A stretch of DNA of 64,000 nt from Pristiophorus japonicus (Eukaryota). A program made the translations under genes and the position numbers. Where the stretch lies: NCBI RefSeq assembly GCF_044704955.1, contig NC_091989.1, forward strand, positions 186,992,001 through 187,056,000, given 5' to 3'. Below are positions 936 to 33,713 of the stretch, piece after piece; the stretch's first letter is position 1, and each line of letters opens with the position of its first letter. The notes beneath the pieces are model-generated. The model saw only the letters and a list, made by a program, of their open reading frames with translations, ran no database searches and was not told where the DNA came from.

Positions 936-974
936 CACAGTGAGAGGAAGCAGGGCTGGGCTGGTACAAAAACT
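936..974 (+). other. VH 23-RSS
   Basis: CACAGTG (936-942) + 23 nt + ACAAAAACT (966-974). Confidence 0.96.
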
Positions 975-1301
975 CAGCCGCACTACAGTCAGGGGAATCA
1001 GTGAAAGGGGAAGCACCATGGCTCACCCCCAGCCTCGCCGTGTTGGGATCTGTCCCCCCCCGTGAATGGGAGAGGGCATTAGCTGGGAAGCCCCAGGATC
1101 ATACAGCCCAGAGCCCCCCCCCCCCCACAACCCACTGTCTGCACACCCCACCCACCGTCTGACCCCCGTCCCCACCCATCATCTACCTCCCCCCCCTCCC
1201 GGGAATGGGAGAGGGCATTAGCTGGAAAGCTCCAGGATCATACAGCCCAGAACCCCCCTCAACCCACCATCTGCCCCCCGTCCCCCAACCCACCGTCTGT
1301 G

Positions 1302-1906
1302 GGACGGCCTATGATGAAGATTAGTGGGGAATTCCTGGCTCCGGGGGACGGCCTATGATGAAGATTAGCGGGAGATTCCTGGCTCCGGGGGACGGCCTAT
1401 GATGAGGATTAGCGGGGGATTCCTGGCTCCGGGGGACTGCCTAAGATGAAGATTAGCGGGGGATTCCTGGCTCCGGGGTTTGGCCTATGATGAAGATTAG
1501 CGGGGGATTCCTGGCTCCGGGGGGACTGCCTATGATGAAGATTAGCGGGAGATTCCTGGCTCCGGGGGGACAGCCTATGATGAGGATTAGCGGGGGATTC
1601 CTGGCTCCGGGGTTTGGCCTATGATGAAGATTAGCGGGGTATTCCTGGCTCCGGGGGGATGGCCTATGATGAGGATTAGTGGGGGATTCCTGGCTCCGGG
1701 GGGATGGCCTATGATGAAGATTAGCGGGGTATTCCTGGCTCCGGGTGACAGCCTATGATGAGGATTAGCGGGGGATTCCTGGCTCCGGGGGACATCCTAT
1801 GATGAAGATTAGCGGGGGATTCCTGGCTCCGGGTGACAGCCTATGATGAAGATTAGCGGGGGATTCCTGGCTCCGGGGGGATGGCCTATGATGAGGATTA
1901 GCGGGG
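1302..1906. repeat. ~42-bp minisatellite, ~14 copies
   Basis: Unit GGGACGGCCTATGATGAAGATTAGCGGGGGATTCCTGGCTCC. Confidence 0.9.
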
Positions 1907-2312
1907 AATCCTGGGGTGACCTGAAGCTGGGCCTTGGGACATATCTAAGAATTGATATATTTATTAATTCTCGAGGATGCAGAAGAGCCCGGTCTCCAAT
2001 TATCTTGGGTCCCCTTGTGATGGGACCAAGACCTTGTGATGGGACCAAGACCTTGCTCCGTCAAGTCCATGTGGAAGCTGGTGTGCGACGGCCAGCCCAC
2101 GATAAACGAATTCACGCACAGGCATCTTCCACTCTCGAGAATGAAGTTCGGGATCTGGAACATCAGGACCCTCATGGACAGCCCCAACAGCGATAGACCA
2201 GAACATCCACTGCTATAGTTGCCCAGGAACTCAGACGTTTCATAGACATCGCCGCCCTAACTGAGACCCGGCGGGCAGGGGAAGGCCAGCTCAAGGAACA
2301 AGGTGGAGGTGA

Positions 2313-5300
2313 TGTCATGTATTTCACCATCTTGCAATGACTATAAGTCTGTAACTGTAACTCATGCACACTGTACCTGTACCCTTGTAATGCACACCCT
2401 GACCACAGGGAGTGAGCTCCTCACCTGGGCTTCCAGGTATAAAAGGGGAGGTCCCACCCAGGATCAGCACTCTTTAGTCCTGGGAATAAAGTGAAGGTCA
2501 CAGAGTGACCGTGTCTGATATATACATGCCTCGTGTGAGTTTATAACAAGGTGCAGAGATATTACATCGGGCGACGAGAATCGAGAATCACCGAACCACG
2601 AGGATGGCCACCGGTGGCAAAGAGGAACGTTACTGTGTGGGTGAGGACTGGGACAACTTTGTGGAAAGACTCCAACAGAGCTTTGTCACAAAGGACTGGC
2701 TGGAAGAGACAGTGGCTGACAAGCGGAGGGTGCAGCTACTGACCAGCTGTGGTCCACAGACGTATGCACTGATCAAAGACCTGCTCGCTTCCCAAAAGCC
2801 AGTGGACAAGTTCTTCAAAGAGCTCAGCCAGCTGATCAGTGAGCACCTCAAGCTGCCAAGTAGCGTACACATGGCCCGGCACTGGTTGTACTCTCACTGG
2901 CGTCGGGAGGGTCAAAATATCTCGGACTTCGTGGTGGAACTGCAGCGTTTGGCCAGTCTCTGTAAGTTCTCCGATGCCTGCAGTGGGGAGATGTTAAGGG
3001 ATTGTTTCATCAAGGGCATTAATCAAGACGGCATTTTCAGGAAGCTCATAAAGACTAAGGATTTGACTTTAGAAGGGGCGGAGTTGATAGCTCAGACCTT
3101 TATGGCAGGGGAAGAGGTGACCAAGCTAATCTACGCACACAGCCCTGGTTTTAAAGTTGCGTTGAACCAGGGAATCAATGTAATAAAAATGACAGAACCC
3201 CACAGGCAGGCAAGGGCAATTCGACACCACCCAGGCAAACTGCAAAAATCTGCAGGTTCCAACTTTACACCTGTAGTGATACACATCACTCCGGACGCCA
3301 GACCAGTGCACCACAAAGCTAGAGCGGTGCCGTACGTGATGCATGAAAAAATTGAAAGTGAACTGGACAGGCTGCTCAGAGAGGGCATAATTTCGGCCGT
3401 TGAATTCAGCAACTGGGCAAGTCCCATCGTTCCCATTCTCAAAGCAGATGGCTCGGTTAGGATTTGTGGCGACTACAAAGCCACCATCAAACGAGTGTTG
3501 CTGCAAGACCAATACCCGCTCCCGAGAGCGGAGGACCTTTTTGTCACGCTGGCAGGTGGTAAGCTGTTCACGAAGCTGGACCTCACTCCGGCCGACATGA
3601 CTCAGGAACTGGCTGAAGAATCCAAGCTTCTGACCATCATCACGACACACAAGGGATTATTTGTCTACAACAGGTGTCCCTTTGGCATTCGTTCGACAGC
3701 GGCTATCTTTCAGCGAAACATGGAAAGCTTGCTCAAGTCCATCCCTGGAACGATTGTGTTCCAAGACGACATTCTTATAACGGGTCGAGACACTGAGGAA
3801 CACCTCCTCAACCTGGAGGAGGTGCTACGCCGATTGGAACGGGTAGGCCTGCGGCTGAAAAAGGCCAAGTGTGTGTTTTTAGCCCTAGAGGTCGAGTTTT
3901 TGGGCAGGAGGGTTGCCGTAGATGGGATCCGGCCCACTGAAACAAAAACTGAGGCGATTCGCCGGGTGCCCAGGCCCGGCAACACGTCGGAGTTGCAATC
4001 ATTCCTAGGACTCTTGAACTATTTTGGGAACTTCCTGCTGAACTTAAGCACATTGTTGGAGCTGTTACACATGCCCCTCCATAAAGGTTGTGAATGGTCT
4101 TGGGGGAGATTGTCAAGAACGGGCTTTCAATAAAGCGAGGAACCTGCTGTGTTCCAACAAACTGTTGACTTTGTATGACGCCTGTAAAAAACTGGTTTTA
4201 ACATGCGGCATCCTACGGGGTTGGGTGTGTTTTGCAGCAGAGTAACGATGACGGCCGACTCCAACCGGTGGCTTACGCCTCCAGGTCGCTCTCCCAGGCA
4301 GAGCGTGGATACGGCATGATCGAGAAGGAGGCACTCGCGTGTGTGTACGGTGTGAAAAAGATGCACCAGTGCCTTTTTGGTAGACAGTTCGAGCTAGAGA
4401 CGGACCACAAGCCGTTAACATCCCTGTTGTCCGACACCAAGGCTGTCAACGCTAATGCGTCAGCTCGCATACAGCGATGGGCCCTCACACTGACTGCGTA
4501 TGACTACACCATACGGCACCGGCCAGGCACCGAAAATTGTGCTGACGCGCTCAGCGGGCTCCCACTGGCCACCACCGAAAGGGTGTCGGAGCAGAGCGCC
4601 GAGATGGTCATGGCCATTGAGGCTTTTGACACTGCAGGCTCCCCCATCACAGCCCGCCAGATCAAACTCTGGACCAACAGGGACCCCCTCCTATCCATGA
4701 TAAAGAAATGTGTCCTGACTGGGGATTGGGCGCCCACGCACGGGCGTGTCCCGAGGAGGTCAGACCGTTTCAGAGACGGATGGATGAACTCTCCATCAAG
4801 CCTGTTATGGGGCAGCCGGGTAGTCATGCCCCAGAAAGGAAGGGACAGCGTTCATGAGGGAACTCCACAGCGAGCACCCTGGCATCGTGTTAATGAAGGC
4901 CATTGCCCGGTCGCACGTGTGGTGGCCGGGGATTGACTCAGACCTGGAACACTGGGTTCGCAGGTGCACGACGTGTGCTCAGCTGGGCAATGCCCCCAGG
5001 GAGGCCCCACTCAGCCCTGGCCCACCAGGCCATGGTCACGTATTCACGTAGACTATGCGGGCCCGTTCATGGGGAAAATGTTCCTGATCGTTGTCGATGC
5101 ATACTCGAAGTGGATCGAGTGCATCATATTGAACTCATGCACGACATCCATCACCGTGGAGAGTCTGCATATGGCTTTTGCGACCCACGGCTTGCCAGAC
5201 ATCCTGGTCAGCGATAATGGCCCGTGTTTTACCAGCCATGAGTTCCAGGAGTTTATGTCGGGCAATGGTATCAAACACATCCGGACAGCGCCGTTCAAGC

Positions 5301-6242
5301 CAGCCTCCATTGGCCAGGCGGAACGGGCGGTCCAAATCATAAAGCAGGGCATGCTACGAATCCAAGGACCCTCCCTTCAGTACCGCCTATCGCGCCTCCT
5401 GCTGGCCTACAGGTCCCGGCCGCACTCGCTCATGGGAGTCCCACCAGCGGAACTGCTCATGAAACGCACGCTCAAGACGCGGCTGTCCCTCATTCACCCA
5501 GCCCTGGCAGACATTGTTGAGGGCAAGCACCAGTCCCAAACCGAGCTCCATGATCAAGGCTCAAGGGGAAGGTGTATAGAAATAGATGACCCGGTATTTG
5601 TTATTAACCATGCTTTGTGACCCAAGTGGCTTGAGGGCACCGTAATTGGCAAAGAAGGAAATAGAGTCATGGTGGTCAGACTAAACAATGGGCAAATATG
5701 CCGCAAACACTTGGACCAAGTAAAGACAAGGTTCAGTGCAGACACGGAGGAACTGGAAGAAGAGCATGATGAGATAGCTTCCACACCACTGCCAGCGTAC
5801 GAGCAACAAAGACAGCCCTCAGCATGCACAGTCCCTGCGGCCAGCTGGACAGGCCGGAATCACCTCAAGTGACAGAGACGCGTGCTGAGGCTCAGCCACC
5901 AGAGTCACAACTGCAGTGCTCCACGAGAGAGCGACGACCACCTGACAGACTTAACCTCTGAAACTAAAAGACCTAAGGGGGGAGGTGATGTCATGTATTT
6001 CACCATCTTGCAATGACTATAAGTATGTAACTGTAACTCATGCACACTGTACCTGTACCCTTGTAATGCACACCCTGACCACAGGGAGTGAGCTCCTCAC
6101 CTGGGCTTCCAGGTATAAAAGGGGAGGTCCCACCCAGGATCAGCACTCTTTAGTCCTGGGAATAAAGTGAAGGTCACAGAGTGACCGGGTCTGATATATA
6201 CATGCCTCGTGTGAGTTTGTAACAAGGTGCAGAAACACTACA
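2313..6242 (+). mobile_element. Ty3/Gypsy LTR retrotransposon, internally deleted and frameshifted
   Basis: 254-bp TG...CA LTRs at 2313-2566 and 5989-6242 (about 6 differences seen); PBS-like TCGGGCGACGAG; PPT AAGGGGGGAGG; TSD GTGA/GTTA; domain order gag-RT-RNaseH-integrase. Confidence 0.93.
2604..5620 (+). pseudogene. Gypsy gag-pol remnants
   Basis: RT motifs WASPIV, RICGDYK, FQDDIL (2604-4133); RNase H PVAYASR...ETDHKPL (4232-4936); integrase HVDYAGP, SDNG, AERAV (4964-5620); no protease or Zn knuckle visible; frameshifts. Confidence 0.88.
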
Positions 6243-8032
6243 GTTACACCTTCTTCTGGAAAGGGAAACCAGAAGCAGAACGCCGCCTCCATGGGGTACT
6301 CTGCGCCATAAAAAATGATCAAGTTGGGCATCTCAGAGACTCCCCCTGCAGGATAAACGAACCTTCGGTTCACCCGAGCCCGGAATCAGTGTGCTATGGT
6401 CTTCAGCGCATAGGGCCCAACACTGAAAGCTATAGATAAGACCAAAGAGCAATTCTACTCCAGCCTTGAACAATCCCTGTCCTGAGTCCCAACAGGCGAC
6501 AAGCTGATCCTCCTCAGTGACTTTAATACCAGAGTCGGTAAAGACACAGACCTCTGGGGAGATGTGATCGGCAGAGAGGGGGTCAGGAAACCCACTCCAG
6601 CGGTACCCTGCTCCTGACAAAATGCTTAGAACATGCCCTCGTCATAAACCAACACTTTGTTCCGTCAGAGAAACAAATACAAGTCTTCATGGCAACACCC
6701 TTGTTCCAAGCTCTGGCATCTGCTCAACTACGTCTTCGTCTGAGCGAGGGATCGCAAGGACGTGCACATCACCCACCCCATGCCAGCAGTCGACGACTGC
6801 TGGATGGACCACCGTCTAATCCGCTCAGTCATTTCCATCAATGTAGCCCCAAAACAGCCGCAGCAACAGAAGCAATGCCGCAGGAAAATCAACGCTGGAG
6901 CACTCAAAGATCCTGCTAAGAAAGCTCTATTCAGCCAGTGCCTCACAACCAGCCTGACTACTCCCAGTGACCCAGAGACTCAGAGTGCCCACAGTGCCTG
7001 GTCTGCCTCAAGGCCTCCATAATTAGCACCTGTGAAGAGACGCTCGGTCACTCGACCAGGAAACACCAAGACTGATTCAACGAGAATGGCCAGGAGATCC
7101 AGGAGCTAATAAGCTGCAAGCGCAAGGCATTCTTGAACTGGAAACAGCAACACAACTCGAGGGCAAGAAAGCAGCTCTATAGACGTCTTAAGACCGAGGT
7201 CCAACAGAAAACCCGTGACCTAAAGAACAGATGGTGGGTGGAGAAAGTGCAGGAGATCCAGCAAAGAGCCGACAACCACGACGTGCGAGGATTCTTTAGC
7301 GTAGTCAAGATCACCTACGGCCCAAGCACCCAAGGTCCTACCCCACTGAGGGCTAAGAACAGAGAGGCAGTCAGTGCTCGCTGGAAGGAGCACTTCAAAG
7401 ATCTCCTTAACCGAGACTCTGTCTTCAATGTGAGTGTCCTCAATTCCATCCCACAGCATGCTACCCACCACCATCTCAGCACAAGCCCTGCTCAGTATCT
7501 GACTACTGAAGAACAACAAGGCCTCAGGAGCAGAAGGAATCCCCTCCGAAACACTAAAACACTATTATTGCGAAGCCATGATCTCATTTCTCTTATCCCA
7601 GGGGATCTCAGAGACACTGTAATCGTGACCATCTTCTATAAAGGAGACCAGTATGATTGCGGTAATTACAGAGGAGTTTCCCTGCTGTCGGCCACAGGGA
7701 AGGTCATCGCAAGAATCCTCCTCAATCGCCTTCTACCTGTAGCTGAAGAGCTCCCCCCAGAGACACAATGCGGATTCCGCCCACTAAGGGACACAACGGA
7801 CATGATCTTCACCACGCGGCAGATACAAGAGAAATGCAGGGAGCAGCACCAACCCCCTGTACATGGCCTTCTATGACCAAACAAAGGCCTTCGACTCTGT
7901 CAATCGTGAGGGATTATGGAGTGTCCTCCTCAACGTCAGTGTTCTCGATCAGGCCAACATCCCCAGCATCGAAGCACTGACCACACTCAATCAGCTCCGC
8001 TGAGCAGGCCACATTGTCCGCATGCCCGACAC

Positions 8033-10208
8033 TTAATGGCGAATGATACTTAAGGGGTTGACTGTGGATGGGCAATGGCAGACATTTAGAGACCGCATGG
8101 ATGAACTACAACAATTGTACATTCCTGTCTGGCATAGAAATAAAAAAGGGAAGGTGCCTCAACCGTGGCTATCAAGGGAAATCAGGGATAGTATTAAAGC
8201 CAAGGAAGTGGCATACAAATTGGCCAGAAATAGCAGCGAACCTGGGGACTGGGAGAAATTTAGAACTCAGCAGAGGAGGACAAAGGGTTTGATTAGGGCA
8301 GGGAAAATGGAGTATGAGAAGAAGCTTGCAGGGAACATTAAGACGGATTGCAAAAGTTTCTATAGATATGTAAAGAGAAAAAGGTTAGTAAAGATAAATG
8401 TAGGTCCCCTGCAGTCAGAATCAGGGGAAGTCATAACGGGGAACAAAGAAATGGCGGACCAATTGAACAAGTACTTTGGTTCGGTATTCACGAAGGAGGA
8501 CACGAACAACCTTCCGGTTATAAAAGGGGTCGGGGGGTCTAGTAAGGAGGAGGAACTGAGGGAAATCCTTATTAGCCTGGAAATTGTGTTGGGGAAATTG
8601 ATGGGATTGAAGGCCGATAAATCCCCAGGGCCTGATGGACTGCATCCCAGAGTACTTAAGGAGGTGGCCTTGGAAATAGTGGATGCGTTGACAGTCATTT
8701 TCCAACATTCCATTGACTCTGGATCAGTTCCTATGGAGTGGAGGGTAGCCAATGTAACCCCACTTTTTAAAAAAGGAGGGAGAGAGAAAACAGGGAATTA
8801 TAGACCGGTCAGCCTGACATCGGTAGTGGGTAAAATGATGGAATCAATTATTAAGGATGTCATAGCAGTGCATTTGGAAAGAGGTGACATGATAGGTCCA
8901 AGTCAGCATGGATTTGTGAAAGGGAAATCATGCTTGACAAATCTTCTGGAATTTTTTGAGGATGTTTCCAGTAGAGTGGATAAGGGAGAACCAGTTGATG
9001 TGGTATATTTGGACTTTCAGAAGGCGTTCGACAAAGTCCCACACAAGAGATTGATGTGCAAAGTTAGAGCACATGGGATTGGGGGTAGTGTACTGACATG
9101 GATTGAGAACTGGTTGTCAGACAGGAAGCAAAGAGTAGGAGTAAATGGGTACTTTTCAGAATGGCAGGCAGTGACTAGTGGGGTACCGCAAGGTTCTGTG
9201 CTGGGGCCCCAGCTGTTTACACTGTACATTAATGATTTAGATGAGGGGATTAAATGTAGTATCTCCAAATTTGCGGATGACACTAAGTTGGGTGGCAGTG
9301 TGAGCTGCGAGGAGGATGCTGTGAGGCTGCAGAGCGACTTGGATAGGTTAGGTGAGTGGGCAAATGCATGGCAGATGAAGTATAATGTGGATAAATGTGA
9401 GGTTATCCACTTTGGTGGTAAAAACAGAGAGACAGACTATTATCTGAATGGTGACAGATTAGGAAAAGGGGAGGTGCAAAGAGACCTGGGTGTCATGGTA
9501 CATCAGTCATTGAAGGTTGGCATGCAGGTGCAGCAGGCGGTTAAGAAAGCAAATGGCATGTTGGCCTTCATAGCAAGGGGATTTGAGTACAGGGGCAGGG
9601 AGGTGTTGCTACAGTTGTACAGGGCATTGGTGAGGCCACACCTGGAGTATTGTGTACAGTTTTGGTCTCCTAACCTGAGGAAGGACATTCTTGCTATTGA
9701 GGGAGTGCAGCGAAGGTTCACCAGACTGATTCCCGGGATGGCGGGACTGACCTATCAAGAAAGACTGGATCAACTGGGCTTATATTCACTGGAGTTCAGA
9801 AGAATGAGAGGGGACCTCATAGAAACATTTAAAATTCTGACGGGGTTAGACAGGTTAGATGCAGGAAGAATGTTCCCAATGTTGGGGAAGTCCAGAACCA
9901 GGGGTCACAGTCTCAGGATAAGGGGTAAGCCATTTAGGACCGAGATGCGGAGGAACTTCTTCACCCAGAGAGTGGTGAACCTGTGGAATTCTCTACCACA
10001 GAAAGTTGTTGAGGCCAATTCACTAAATATATTCAAAAAGGAGTTAGATGAGGTCCTTACTGCTAGGGGGATCAAGAGGTATGGCGAGAAAGCAGGAATG
10101 GGGTACTGAAGTTGAATGTTCAGCCATGAACTCATTGAATGGCGGTGCAGGCTAGAAGGGCCGAATGGCCTACTCCTGCACCTATTTTCTATGTTTCTAT
10201 GTTTCTAT
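8033..10208 (+). mobile_element. 5'-truncated CR1 LINE (subfamily A, (TATGTTTC)n tail)
   Basis: TSD GACAC at 8028-8032 and 10209-10213; 8-bp tail repeats; inserted into the RTE. Confidence 0.93.
8043..10109 (+). CDS. CR1 ORF2 reverse transcriptase, open 688 aa, endonuclease domain missing
   Basis: KSPGPDG, NYRPVSLTS, YLDFQKAFD, GVPQGSVLGP, FADD, RPHLEYC, TRGH motifs. Confidence 0.9.
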   Translation: MILKGLTVDGQWQTFRDRMDELQQLYIPVWHRNKKGKVPQPWLSREIRDSIKAKEVAYKLARNSSEPGDWEKFRTQQRRTKGLIRAGKMEYEKKLAGNIKTDCKSFYRYVKRKRLVKINVGPLQSESGEVITGNKEMADQLNKYFGSVFTKEDTNNLPVIKGVGGSSKEEELREILISLEIVLGKLMGLKADKSPGPDGLHPRVLKEVALEIVDALTVIFQHSIDSGSVPMEWRVANVTPLFKKGGREKTGNYRPVSLTSVVGKMMESIIKDVIAVHLERGDMIGPSQHGFVKGKSCLTNLLEFFEDVSSRVDKGEPVDVVYLDFQKAFDKVPHKRLMCKVRAHGIGGSVLTWIENWLSDRKQRVGVNGYFSEWQAVTSGVPQGSVLGPQLFTLYINDLDEGIKCSISKFADDTKLGGSVSCEEDAVRLQSDLDRLGEWANAWQMKYNVDKCEVIHFGGKNRETDYYLNGDRLGKGEVQRDLGVMVHQSLKVGMQVQQAVKKANGMLAFIARGFEYRGREVLLQLYRALVRPHLEYCVQFWSPNLRKDILAIEGVQRRFTRLIPGMAGLTYQERLDQLGLYSLEFRRMRGDLIETFKILTGLDRLDAGRMFPMLGKSRTRGHSLRIRGKPFRTEMRRNFFTQRVVNLWNSLPQKVVEANSLNIFKKELDEVLTARGIKRYGEKAGMGY

Positions 10209-10506
10209 GACACGATAATCCGAAAACAAGTGCTCTACTCGGAACTCCTACACAGCAAGTGAGCCCCAGGTGGACATAGAAAATGCTTTAAGGACACCCT
10301 CAAAGCCTTCTTGAAAAAGTACAACATCCCCACCGACACCTGGGAGTCCCTGGCCAAAGACCACCCAAAGTGGAGGAGATGCATCTGGGAGGACGCTGAG
10401 TACCATGGGTCTCGTCGCCGAGAGCATGTGGAAGCCAAGCGCAGGCAGCGGAAGGAGCGTGCGGCAAACCTGCCCCACCCACCCTTTCCTTCAACCACTG
10501 TCTGTC

Positions 10507-11320
10507 ACAGAAACATAGAAAATAGGTGCAGGAGTAGGCCTTTCGGCCCTTCGAGCCTGCATCACCATTCAATATGATCATGGCTGGTCACGCAACTTCA
10601 GTACCCCATTCCTGCTTTCTCTCCATACCCCTTGATCCCTTTAGCTGTAAGTGCCACATTTAACTCCCTTTTGAATATATCTAATGAACTGACCTCAACA
10701 AATTTCTGTGGTAGAGAATTCCACAGGTTCACAATTCTCTGAGTGAAGAAGTTTCTCCTCATCTCGGTCCTAAATGGCTTACCCCTTATCCTTAGACTGT
10801 GATCCTTGGTTCTGGACTTCCCCAACATCGGGAACATTGTTCCTGCATCTTACCTGTCTAAACCCATCAGAATTTAATATGTTTCTATGAGATCCCCTCT
10901 CATGCTTCTAAATTCCAGTGAATATAAACCGAGTTGATCCAATCTTTCTTCATATGTCAGTCCTGCCATCCTGGGAATCAATCTGGTGAACATTTGCTGA
11001 ACTCCCTCAATAGCAAGAATGTCCTTCCTCAGATTAGGAGACCAAAACTGTACACAATACTCCAGGTGTGGCCTCACCAAGGCCCTGTACAACTGCAGTA
11101 AGACTTCCTGCTCCGATACTCAAATCCTCTCGCTATGAAGGCCAACATGCAATTTGCCTTCTTCACCGCCTGCTGTACCTGCATGCCAAACTTCAATGAC
11201 TGATGTACCATGGCACCCAGGTCTCGTTGCATCTCCCATTTTCCGAATCCATCACCATTCAGATAATAATCTGCCTTCCTGTTTTTGCCACCAAAGTGGA
11301 TAACCTGACATTTATCTACA
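10507..11320 (-). mobile_element. CR1 3' fragment inserted in the RTE
   Basis: Minus-strand RPHLEYCVQFWSP...GYGEKAGMGY; reversed tail at ~10507. Confidence 0.88.
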
Positions 11321-11469
11321 GCTGTGCCCCACCTGTGACAGAGACTGTCATTCCCGTATTGGACTGTTCAGTCACCTGAGAACTCACTGAGAGTGGACGC
11401 AAGCCTTTTGAGGGACTGCCTATGATGATGATGGTGGTGGTAACTGAGTGTCTCACTGGGACCACTTCA

Positions 11470-11735
11470 GAGAGCAGGTAAGGGGCAAGCAATTGGGGGT
11501 GGGACTGGAGTCACCTATAGGCTCGGCTGTGTTCCAGAAGGACCTCAGTGACCAGTTGGGTGTTTACGACCATCCGCCAGCTGCATGGTCACTTTTACTG
11601 AGCCCAGAATTTTTTAGCCTCAGATTTTTAAAATGAAATTGCCAAACTCCCATAGAGGGATTTGAACTCGGGAGTTCCTGGGATTATTGAATCCAGGTCT
11701 TCAGATCACTGGGCCAGTGACAGAACCACCATCGC
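11470..11735 (-). mobile_element. Degraded tRNA-derived SINE
   Basis: GGATTTGAACTC is the reverse complement of a B box (GAGTTCAAATCC). Confidence 0.5.
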
Positions 11736-11830
11736 CAGCGTAAATCAGAGAGCAGGATCACTCACTTGTAGCCGAGCCAGTGCAGTTTCAATGTGAAGTG
11801 ACTGGGGCCAGTGTCAGTGACAGAGGCAGA

Positions 11831-11911
11831 GGTTATTGTACGGCTGTGTATCACTGTGCCTATACTGGGTGGCACAGTGTGAGAGGTGGGGGCTCCCTCC
11901 ATTCAAAAACC
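11831..11911 (+). other. IgW: DH1 segment (coding 11859-11872, CCTATACTGGGTGG) with 12/23 RSSs
   Basis: GGTTATTGT-12-CACTGTG (11831-11858); CACAGTG-23-TCAAAAACC (11873-11911). Confidence 0.93.
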
Positions 11912-12246: not shown

Positions 12247-12316
12247 GGTGTTTGAGCTGAGGTGAAGCACTGTGCTGGGTATACGGCCCACAGCAGCACA
12301 GAGCTTGACAAAAACT
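12247..12316 (+). other. IgW: DH2 segment (coding 12275-12288, CTGGGTATACGGCC) with 12/12 RSSs
   Basis: GGTGTTTGA-12-CACTGTG (12247-12274); CACAGCA-12-ACAAAAACT (12289-12316). Confidence 0.92.
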
Positions 12317-12651: not shown

Positions 12652-12690
12652 AGTTCCTACATTGCTGGGACCAGGAGACGGAGCACTGTG
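12652..12690 (+). other. JH 23-RSS with perfect heptamer and degenerate nonamer
   Basis: AGTTCCTAC (12652-12660) + 23 nt + CACTGTG (12684-12690). Confidence 0.7.
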
Positions 12691-12738
12691 ACTATCTTGA
12701 CTACTGGGGCACAGGAACCTCGCTGACAGTGACTTCGG
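12691..12738 (+). CDS. IgW: JH segment (YLDYWGTGTSLTVTS)
   Basis: WGxGT motif; phase-1 donor G|GTAAGA. Confidence 0.96.
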
Positions 12739-28423: not shown

Positions 28424-30371
28424 ACTGGGAGAAATTTAGAACTCAGCAGAGGAGGACAAAGGGTTTGATGAGGGCAGGGAAAATAGAGTTCGAGAAGAAG
28501 CTTGCAGGGAACATTAAGACGGATTGCAAAAGTTTCTATAGATATGTAAAGAGAAAAAGGTTAGTAAAGACAAATGTAGGTCCCCTGCAGTCAGAATCAG
28601 GGGAAGTCATAACGGGGAACAAAGAAATGGCAGACCAATTGAACAAGTACTTTGGTTCGGTATTCACGAAGGAGGACACAATCAACCTTCCGGTCAGAGG
28701 GTCTAGTAAGGAGGAGGAACTGAGGGAAATCCTTATTAGTTGGGAAATTGTGTTGGGGAAATTGATGGGATTGAAGGCCGATAAATCCCCAGAGCCTGAT
28801 GGACTGCATCCCAGAGTACTTAAGGAGGTGGCCTTGGAAATAGCGGATGCATTGATAGTCATTTTCCAACATTCCATTGACTCTGGATCAGTTCCTATCG
28901 AGTGGAGGGTAGCCAATGTAACCCCACTTTTTAAAAAAGGACAGAGAGAGAAAACAGGGAATTATAGACTGGTCAGCCTGACTTCAGTAGTGGGTAAAAT
29001 GATGGAATCAATTATTAAGGATGTCATAGCAGCGCATTTGGAAAGAGGTGACATGATAGGTCCAAGTCAGCATGGATTTGTGAAAGGGAAATCATGCTTG
29101 ACAAATCTTCTGGAATTTTTTGAGGATGTTTCCAGTAGAGTGGACAAGGGAGAACCAGTTGATGTGTTATATTTGGACTTTCAGAAGGCTTTCGACAAGG
29201 TCCCACACAAGAGATTAATGTGCAAAGTTAAAGCACATGGGATTGGGCGTAGTGTGCTGACATGGATTGAGAACTGTTTGTCAGACAGGAAGCAAAGAGT
29301 AGGAGTAAATGGGTACTTTTCAGAATGGCAGGCAGTGACTAGTGGGGTACCGCAAGGTTCTGTGCTGGGGCCCCAGCTGTTTATACTGTACATTAATGAT
29401 TTAGACGAGGGGATTAAATGTAGTATCTCCAAATTTGCGGATGACAGTAAGTTAGGTGGCAGTGTGAGCTGCGAGGAGGATGCTATGAGGCTGCAGAGTG
29501 ACTTGGATAGGTTAGGTGAGTGGGCAAATGCATGGCAGATGAAGTATAATGTGGATAAATGTGAGGTTATCCACTTTGGTGGTAAAAACAGAGAGACAGA
29601 CAATTATCTGAATGGTGACAGATTAGGAAAAGGGGAGGTGCAACGAGACCTGGGTGTCATGGTACATCAGTCATTGAAGATTGGCATGCAGGTACAGCAG
29701 GCGGTTAAGAAAGCAAATGGCTTGTTGGCCTTCATAGCGAGGGTATTTGAATACAGGGGCAGGGAGGTGTTGGTACAGTTGTACAAGGCCTTGGTGAGGC
29801 CACACCTGGAGTATTGTGTACAGTTTTGGTCTTCTAACTTGAGGAAGGACATTCTTGCTATTGAGGGAGTGCAACGAAGGTTCACCAGACTGATTCCCGG
29901 GATGGCGGGACTGACCTTTCAAGAAAGACTGGATCAACTGGGCTTGTATTCACTGGAGTTCAGAAGAATGAGAGGGGACCTCATAGAAACGTTTAAAATT
30001 CTGATGGGTTCAGACAGGTTAGATGCAGGAAGAATGTTCGCAATGTTGGGAAAGTCCAGAACCAGGGGTCACAGTCTAAGGATAAGGGGTAAGCCATTTA
30101 GGACCGAGATGAGGAGAAACTTCTTCACCCAGAGAGTGGTGAACCTATGGAATTCTCTACCACAGAAAGTTGTTGAGGCCAATTCACTACATATATTCAA
30201 AAAGGAGTTAGATGAAGTCCTTACTACTCGGGGAATCAAGGGGTATGGCGAAAAAGCAGGAATGGGGTACTGAAGTTGCATGTTCAGCCATGAACTCATT
30301 GAATGGCGGTGCAGGCTAGAAGGGTCGAATGGCCTGCTCCTGCACATATTTTCTATGTTTCTATGTTTCTA
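28424..30371 (+). mobile_element. 5'-truncated CR1 subfamily A with open RT ORF (28465-30273)
   Basis: Nearly identical protein to 8043-10109; TATGTTTC tail. Confidence 0.92.
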
Positions 30372-31060
30372 TTAATCTCCCAATCAATGTCAGTGTATTA
30401 ATCTCCCAATCAATGTCAGTGCATTAATCTCCCAATCAATGTCAGCGCATTAATCTCTCAATCAATGTCAGTGCATTAATCTCCCAATCAATATCAGTGC
30501 ACTAATCTCCCAATCAATGTCACCGCATTAATCTCCCAATCAATGTCAGTGCATTAATCTCCCAATCAATGTCAGTGCATTAATCTCCCAATCAATGTCA
30601 GCGCATTAATCTCTCAATCAATGTCAGTGCATTAATCTCCCAATCAATGTCACCGCATTAATCTCCCAATCAATGTCACCGCATTAATCTCCCAATCAAT
30701 GTCAGTGCATTAATCTCCCAATCAATGTCAGTGCATTAATCTCCCAATCAATGTCACCGCATTAATCTCCCAATCAATGTCACCGCATTAATCTCCCAAT
30801 CAATGTCAGTGCATTAATCTCCCAATCAATGTCAGCACATTAATCTCTCAATCAATGTCAGTGCATTAATCTCCCAATCAATGTCAGCACATTAATCTCT
30901 CAATCAATGTCAGTGCATTAATCTCTCAATCAATATCAGTGCACTAATCTCCCAATCAGTGTCACGGCATTAATCTCCCAATCAATGTCAGCGCATTAAT
31001 CTCCCAATCAATGCCAGCGCATTAATCTCCCAATCAATGTCAGTGCATTAATCTCCCAAT

Positions 31061-32597
31061 CATAAGAACATAAGAACATAAGAATCAGGAACAGGAGTAG
31101 GCCAACTAGCCCCTCGAACCTGCTCCGCCATTCAACAAGATCATGGCTGATCTGGCCGTGGATTCAGCTCCACTTACCCGCCCGCTCCCCGTAACCCTTA
31201 ATTCCCTTATTGGTTAAAAATCTATCTAACTGTGATTTGAATACATTCAATGAGCTAGCCTCAACTGCTTCCTTGGGCAGAGGATTCCACAGATTCACAA
31301 CCCTCTGGGAGAAGAAATTCCTTCTCAACTCGGTTTTAAATTGGCTCCACCATATTTTGAGGCTGTGCTCCCTAGTTCTAGTCTCCCCAACCAGTGGAAA
31401 CAACCTCTCTGCATCGATCTTGTCTATCCCTTTCATTTTTTTAAATGTTTCGATAAGATCCCCCCTCATCCCTCTGAACTCCAACGATTAAAGACCCAGT
31501 CTACTCAATCTATCATCATAAGGTAACCCTCTCATCTCCGGAATCAGCCTAGTGAATCATCTCTGTACCCCCTCCAAAGCTAGTATATCCTTCCTTAAGA
31601 AAGGTGACCAAAACTGCACGCAGTACTCCAGGTGCGACCTCACCAATACCCGATACAGTTGCAGCAGGACCTCCCTGCTTTTGTACTTCATCCCTCTCGC
31701 AATGAAGGCCAACATTCCATTCGCCTTCCTGATTACCTGCTGCACCTGCAAACTAACTTTTTGGGATTCATGCACAAGGATCCCCAGGTCCCTCTGCACC
31801 TCAGCATGTTGTAATTTCTCCCCATTCAAATAATATTCCCTTTTACTGTTTTGTTTTCCAAGGTGGATGACCTCACATTTTCCGACATTGTATTCCATCT
31901 GCCAAACCTTAGCCCATTCGCTTAACCTATCTAAATCTCTTTGCAGCCTCTGTGTCCTCGACACAACCCGCTTTCCCACTAATCTTTGTATCATCTGCAA
32001 ATTTTGTTACACTACATTCTGTCCCCTCTTCCAGGTCATCTATATATATTGTAAACAGTTGTGGTCCCAGCACTGATCCCTGTGGCACACCACTAACCAC
32101 CGATTTCCAACCTGAAAAGGACCCATTTATCCTGACTCTCTGCTTTCTGTTAGCCAGCCAATTCTCTATCCATGCTAATACATTTCCTCTGACTCCGCGT
32201 ACCTTTATCTTCTGCAGTAACCTTTTGTGTGGCACCTTATTGAATGCCTTTTGGAAATCTAAATACACCACATCCATCAGTACACCTCTATCCACCATGT
32301 TCGTTATATCCTCAAAGAAGTAAATTAGTTAAACATGATTTCCCCTTCATGAATCCATGTTGTGTCTGCTTGATTGCATTATTCCTATCTAGATGTCCTG
32401 CTATTTCTTCCTTAATGATGGTTTCAAGCATTTTCCTCACTACAGATGTTAAACTAACTGGCCTATAGTGGTGACCTGTCTTTTGTCTGCCCCCTTTTTT
32501 AAACAGAGGCGTTACATAAGCTGCTTTCCAATCCGCTGGTACCTCCCCAGAGCCCAGAGAATTTTGGTAGATTATAACGAATGCATCTGCTATAACT
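31061..32597 (-). mobile_element. CR1 subfamily B, truncated and frameshifted
   Basis: (CATAAGAA)n reversed tail; minus-strand RT fragments. Confidence 0.9.
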
Positions 32598-33392: not shown

Positions 33393-33713
33393 TTGTTCAG
33401 TCCAAACCATCTGTCTACATCGCCAACCCTTCCTGTGGCAGCAACTCCAACCAAGATGGGATCACCTTCCTGTGCCTGGTCAAAGACTTTCAGCCCAAGA
33501 GCATCATTCAGACATGGTCCACTAATGGAGCGGACATCACGACTGGAGTGAAGAAGTATCCGGCTGTCTTGGGGCAAAATATGGCGTACACGATGAGCAG
33601 TGCGCTCAAAGTCTCTGCAGCAGATTGGGAAACCAATCGGGTCTACTACTGCAAGGCGGGGTACAAGGCCAGTGAAATGTTGGTGGCTCAGACCCCAGAA
33701 CCTGGACCTAAAA
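33393..33713 (+). CDS. IgW: IgW CH1 exon
   Basis: TTTCAG|TT; VQSKPSVYIANPSC...FLCLVKDFQP...W...YYCKAGY; extra N-terminal Cys for light-chain pairing; A|GTGAGT. Confidence 0.93.

Follow-up and report, generated by a model that had tools for sequence, protein, structure and literature searches.

A retroelement nest separates V from D1 in the split IgW heavy-chain clusters of the shark Pristiophorus japonicus

Organization of the IgW cluster

The 64,000-nucleotide stretch of the Pristiophorus japonicus genome analysed here (the window; contig NC_091989.1, positions 186,992,001 to 187,056,000) contains a shark immunoglobulin heavy-chain cluster of the IgW isotype, which comprises one variable (V) segment, two diversity (D1 and D2) segments, one joining (J) segment and six constant (C) exons. 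V is separated from D1 by 10,856 bp, whereas D1-D2 and D2-J each measure 335 bp, which bears out an earlier note on this sequence that had given about 10.9 kb and about 335 bp. Reviews place VH and D1 250–500 bp apart in the heavy-chain miniloci of cartilaginous fish (PMC5192425, PMC4279169), a spacing that is violated by the window. The gap is filled by a nest of retroelements. Beyond the earlier note, the whole set of split IgW copies carries V-D1 spacers of 9.6–104.8 kb that are built on one ancestral nest.

All features described below lie on the plus strand unless stated otherwise. The leader exon (488–533, with a GT donor at 534) encodes a peptide that is identical in four paralogues, and its splice is used in X1, the only public run found (a single run of unrecorded type, tissue and individual). 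The V exon (642–935) is open, contains the Cys/Trp/Cys core and encodes a conventional VH with framework region (FR) 2 and complementarity-determining region (CDR) 2; its CDR2-FR3 lineage differs from that of the other copies. The recombination signal sequence (RSS) of V, with a 23-bp spacer (23-RSS, 936–974), is identical to that of four paralogues. D1 with its signals occupies 11831–11911 (12-RSS 11831–11858, D1 11859–11872, 23-RSS 11873–11911), and D2 with its signals occupies 12247–12316 (12-RSS 12247–12274, D2 12275–12288, 12-RSS 12289–12316 with the heptamer CACAGCA). The V and D signals are thus intact, as had been claimed. J and its 23-RSS lie at 12652–12738 (nonamer 12652–12660, heptamer 12684–12690, J 12691–12738), and the 23/12-23/12-12/23 layout is 12/23-compatible throughout. 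The J nonamer is degenerate and fits the consensus at four of nine positions in all five split copies. An equally weak J nonamer is present in older remnants on contig C11, yet a D2-J joint exists in X1. Both this nonamer and the 44-bp minisatellite described below (1301–1914) had been overlooked in the earlier note.

Six open IgW constant exons with the secretory tail of the long form are located at 33393–57955, with the start of Cw1 at 33393. Cw1 shares 74% identity with spiny dogfish IgW and 61% with houndshark IgW; it is also 97% identical to a public gene model named as the IgW short secretory form, which is V-less. With the IgW V-D-D-J-C miniloci described in PMC5192425 and PMC4279169, the window shares a single V and J flanking two D segments, six C exons plus secretory tail and the signal layout. 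The discrepancy lies in the VH-D1 distance, which spans kilobases in every split copy here, while D1-D2 and D2-J are still 335 bp and free of insertions in five of five copies.

The retroelement nest between V and D1

Element DNA accounts for 9,526 of the 10,856 bp of the V-D1 spacer (88%, full annotation), and the 467 bp outside the nest and the minisatellite correspond to a normal V-D length. A leftover native segment (11442–11730) matches many places in the genome at 68–82% and is therefore itself partly an old repeat. On the V side, a 139-bp C-rich repeat is duplicated (1050–1290), and a 44-bp minisatellite of 13.9 copies (1301–1914) contains an RTE-type 3´ end inside its unit; this motif also occurs at 11404–11432.

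The nest is hosted by an old, decayed RTE long interspersed nuclear element (about 1915–11440), which is split by three inserts. Its decayed frames retain the features of a single open reading frame with endonuclease, reverse transcriptase (RT) and C-terminal zinc finger, followed by a short-repeat tail. Because these frames run through all three inserts, the RTE hosts the Gypsy element and both CR1 elements, in agreement with the earlier note. Endonuclease motifs are located on both sides of the Gypsy element, and the zinc-finger end with a TGA tail is found at 11321–11440. Element families were assigned from motifs, rather than from a repeat library, together with Pfam matches to RT, RNase H and integrase; the host is presumably of the RTE clade, and the plus-strand truncated element is taken by us to be CR1 from the C-terminal motifs of its RT.

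The Gypsy element (2310–6242), present in all five copies, has paired long terminal repeats (LTRs; about 2310–2566 and about 5986–6242), a primer site, a purine tract and the order RT-RNase H-integrase. In Pfam, each of these three domains matches in a separate frame and no protease match was obtained; the coding capacity is not intact. The window copy has an internal deletion near 3275 and lacks about 0.6 kb kept by the paralogous copies. Its LTRs differ at 6 of 254 sites (6–11 of 254 for the LTR pairs among the copies). A clean target duplication of 4–5 bp was not resolved for this element, the left flank of which resembles the purine tract.

The plus-strand CR1 (8033–10208) is young and 5´-truncated. 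It contains an open RT frame of 690 codons (8037–10109), a short-repeat 3´ tail and a GACAC target duplication, and it is private to the window cluster, the site being empty in four of four paralogues; the nearest copy seen is 99.0% identical. This 2.2-kb element matches only RVT_1 in Pfam, with no endonuclease domain, and is not autonomous. The second, older truncated CR1 (10506–11320, minus strand) is common to all five copies. In opposite orientation, the two CR1s match over 820 bp (9386–10201 and 10506–11320, 88–90% identity) and so make an inverted repeat, whose arms are separated by 304 bp and which lies 0.5 kb away from the D1 signal. ARAGORN detected no tRNA in the V-D1 interval, and a low-power scan with a CTCF-like consensus had no match in the 150 bp around either the V or the D1 signal.

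As in other nested clusters of RTE, Ty3/Gypsy and CR1 elements, the window displays ordinary insertion of element into element, with target duplication and paired LTRs; it differs only in its location between two RSSs. The nest and the excision circle are in themselves ordinary; V(D)J joining generally yields such circles as a by-product. The predicted circle (936–11858) measures 10,923 bp, close to the size anticipated in the earlier note, and the LTRs and the open RT frame named there lie within it. It would form if the window V were used, but its cargo would consist only of broken or promoterless elements, with the Gypsy element broken and the CR1 devoid of endonuclease and promoter.

A family of split copies and the history of the insertions

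Relatives of the window in the genome comprise five V segments (66–75% protein identity), four D-J regions (98%) and six copies of Cw1. The seven Cw1 copies in total correspond to five split clusters, a germline-joined copy (C3281) and C2472, in which no V, D or J match was found in the 72 kb upstream of Cw1. From heptamer to heptamer, the V-D1 distance is 9,574 bp in C3915, 10,923 bp in the window, 28,783 bp in C3873, 78,145 bp in C3019 and 104,820 bp in C2079, while promoters and RSSs are near-identical despite this ten-fold range. The spacers of the four split relatives contain no N and no further segment or signal. The RTE, Gypsy and minus-strand CR1 junctions are common to all five, and each copy has gained private CR1s or extra array length in V-D1. 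The length of the long copies is mainly 44-bp minisatellite, with arrays of about 10, 60 and 89 kb in the paralogues, and of the 695 exact matches to its 35-nt core genome-wide, 691 fall in the five spacers. The units are diverse, and the arrays contain diverged higher-order repeats (96–99.8%).

The interval is real and not misassembled, because the same junctions occur in four other contigs. An artefact of assembly is hardly credible: the interval is rich in repeats, and in C2079 a 1,869-bp array segment matches the adjacent one at 99.8%, so that array lengths may be off, but the nest recurs in the other contigs at 2–3% divergence, the target duplication has matching empty sites, no piece contains N and the array units are diverse.

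The earlier note had proposed a survey of V-D lengths across clusters. From 541 candidates, 150 matches were listed and 64 other heavy-chain V loci among them were examined: 55 are compact, with a J motif no more than 1,157 bp away, and the remaining nine were left unresolved by the script. All five split IgW copies have long spacers. The suggestion that the locus offers a natural test of segment proximity is upheld and bettered, because the five copies cover 9.6–104.8 kb.

The RTE is 79–83% identical to its best unrelated copies (among 40 scored) versus 97–98% to its paralogues. With 17–21% divergence from the former and 2–3% from the latter, the RTE predates the cluster duplications. Junction sharing and the divergences give the order of events: the RTE first, then the Gypsy element and the minus-strand CR1, then duplication and finally the private CR1s. 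Three of the four insertions likely came to the window by duplication and were not gathered there. An old RTE insertion would thus have stretched the V-D1 spacer before the Gypsy and CR1 elements entered. The first insertion may have served as a neutral target for the later ones, the nest was likely passed on through cluster duplication, and the 44-bp unit at the RTE 3´ junction could have expanded through unequal crossing-over. The same process may have shuffled V and D-J-C halves among copies. The copies are mosaic: C3915 agrees with the window on the 5´ side but with the other three on the 3´ side, a structure that would be consistent with such crossing-over.

C3281 (80576–80979) contains a germline-joined V-(D2)-J that is out of frame, and its flanks are 2–4% diverged from the nest-bearing copies. 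Its 5´ side groups with three copies, and in the J intron it has 13 sites in common with the window.

The earlier note had proposed that V-D1 is a safe harbour in which elements accumulate specifically because B cells delete it, sparing the expressed gene. The element content of the spacer (88%), the private CR1s or array length added there in each copy and the largest arrays held by V-D1 in three copies agree with this proposal. A comparison of RT cover (49% versus 53%) undercounts the V-D1 nest, and insertion counts were therefore used instead. The J-Cw1 intron, which is retained, holds about 12–14 CR1 pieces in 20.6 kb versus four insertions in the 10.9-kb V-D1 interval, so that insertions per kb are as many or more in retained DNA. 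A large array is likewise retained in C2472 (8102–40000), where a 26-bp minisatellite of at least 30 kb, with the unit found at window 30371–31062, lies in the intron upstream of C. Conversely, D1-D2 and D2-J, which are deleted as well, carry no insertion in five of five copies, although their 3.4 kb in total is too little for a test, and 55 of the 64 other V loci are compact. With CR1s and arrays abundant in the retained intron and no insertions in D1-D2 and D2-J, the nest can be explained without invoking deletion in B cells, and the proposal, which is not supported, is improbable.

Joining across the spacer and the V-less transcripts

X1 contains RNA, because one of its contigs carries a precise leader-to-Cw1 splice; the leader is nearest to that of the 78-kb copy C3019 (1 difference in 134). 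A second contig of 460 nt begins with the V end TACTGTGCGAG, followed by five untemplated bases, D1 trimmed by six and an unrearranged D1-D2 interval. Its 3´ part consists of a partial D2, the dinucleotide GT and an untrimmed J. The GT can be read as the palindrome expected from an opened hairpin. The V end fits four paralogues but neither the window V nor any of the 18 other V ends compared; its GCG codon is found in IgW V ends and in none of those 18. Over the D1-D2 interval, the contig differs at 2–3 of 416 sites from C3915, the 9.6-kb copy, and at 6 from the window. The nest is likely no bar to joining, because this contig carries V-D1 and D2-J coding joints of the IgW family. VDJ joints, which the earlier note had suggested looking for, were thus found for the family, but not from the window's own V. 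Judged from this sequence, RAG is likely still able to bridge at least the shortest V-D1 gap (about 9.6–10 kb).

According to PMC2435157, nurse shark IgM forms VD-DJ rearrangement intermediates, and the X1 contig is likewise a two-joint VD1-D2J form with trimmed ends and added bases. The model of shark heavy-chain joining in that report places segments about 400 bp apart and joins them in one stage, with no long-distance step; the V-D1 joint here likely spans at least 9.6 kb.

We favour, as the probable account, a neutral and inherited V-D1 expansion that reached five split IgW copies through duplication, with a gap of about 10 kb likely tolerated by RAG. Several points weigh against it. The evidence for rearrangement is one X1 contig with 11 V letters, below the 31-letter bridging rule of the tool. 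That molecule may be germline-joined in the animal sampled, or may derive from an unseen allele or a trans-rearrangement; even if it is germline-joined, a copy that postdates the nest underwent RAG-type joining. At 85%, no IgW V exon was covered by an X1 contig, the window V being without cover, and no full VDJ-C transcript was found in X1. The five split copies may represent fewer loci, because several of the contigs are unplaced and could be alleles (around Cw1, C3873 and C3915 are only 0.1% apart), and homogenisation of the flanks blurs the dating of C3281. In C2079, with the 105-kb spacer, a 7-bp deletion takes away the end of D2 and the first base of its 3´ heptamer, the CAC of which is lost. 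We infer, further, that the spacer likely grew neutrally under weak constraint on length and that the longest copies may rearrange rarely or never, giving mainly V-less transcripts.

The V exons bear on whether the copies are still used. The V frame is open in all six copies, and the indels keep it in frame. The window and C3915 differ at 36 of 81 CDR2-FR3 sites versus 4 of 256 leader and intron sites, and the CDR2-FR3 type of three copies has 76–83% identity to proteins of dogfish, basking shark and bamboo shark versus 25–29% to the window's. This pattern would be consistent with selection on the V protein; dN/dS (the ratio of nonsynonymous to synonymous substitution) over the whole V is near 1. 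It also suggests that old V lineages are retained while flanks homogenise, one type being shared with distant sharks. Three very different CDR2-FR3 cassettes are found in otherwise about 99% identical V genes (window, C3915, C3873, C2079, C3019 and C3281). The sole V piece assembled from X1 is of IgM type, and a V search among short proteins gave no shark match.

Alternatively, the insertions might have silenced rearrangement, turning the window cluster and perhaps most IgW copies into V-less genes. The leader-to-Cw1 contig closest to the 78-kb copy, the V-less public model of the 97% identical protein, the lost CAC in C2079 and the degenerate J nonamer all point in this direction. We nevertheless regard it as unlikely, given the V-D1 and D2-J joints in X1, the open and diversified V frames with untouched RSSs, and the age and evident use of the weak nonamer. 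Furthermore, in PMC5192425, V-less IgW, in which the leader is spliced to the first C exon, is an alternative splice form that makes up 8% of dogfish IgW, and it is a minor form in species without known long spacers; the splice in X1 is of the identical type. V-less IgW in this shark may be linked to long unrearranged spacers or to the out-of-frame joined copy.

Spacer length might also be selected as a dial, a longer spacer lowering the rearrangement rate and so determining how much IgW is V-bearing rather than V-less, or how far each V lineage is used. The ten-fold spacing on near-identical promoters and RSSs would fit, as would a V-less leader nearest the 78-kb copy and a rearranged molecule nearest the 9.6-kb copy. 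Against this, the comparison involves two contigs, arrays also expand elsewhere in these clusters and decay in the longest copy fits drift; selection of this kind seems very improbable.

The neutral, inherited expansion admits a wider and more tentative extension, in which close spacing of the segments has been lost throughout the IgW isotype. V-D1 joins in every split copy would then have to be made over 10–105 kb of retroelement and private minisatellite sequence, working at 10 kb and declining with distance, the longest copies would be becoming V-less genes, and the system would be intermediate between a minilocus and long-range rearrangement. No report of long V-D spacers in shark IgW turned up in a literature search that left some key primary papers and reviews outside its reach, so that a prior description is possible; the available parts of PMC12227049 and PMC11641339 contain nothing on segment spacing. 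With promoters and signals nearly the same but V-D1 spans of 9.6–104.8 kb, the five IgW copies form a one-animal distance series for RAG joining in a minilocus, and the same series could show whether V-less IgW stems from copies that fail to rearrange.

Two further observations concern other loci. D/J look-alikes on C11 (162.80–162.90 Mb) were rejected as remnants: the IgW-like D2 and J match at 83–85%, a shared 13-bp deletion has removed the heptamer of both J, and no V match lies near them in the 70 kb examined. Among the IgM-type clusters, many have V-to-J distances of 36–45, about 430, about 520 or about 900 bp and are partly or fully germline-joined.

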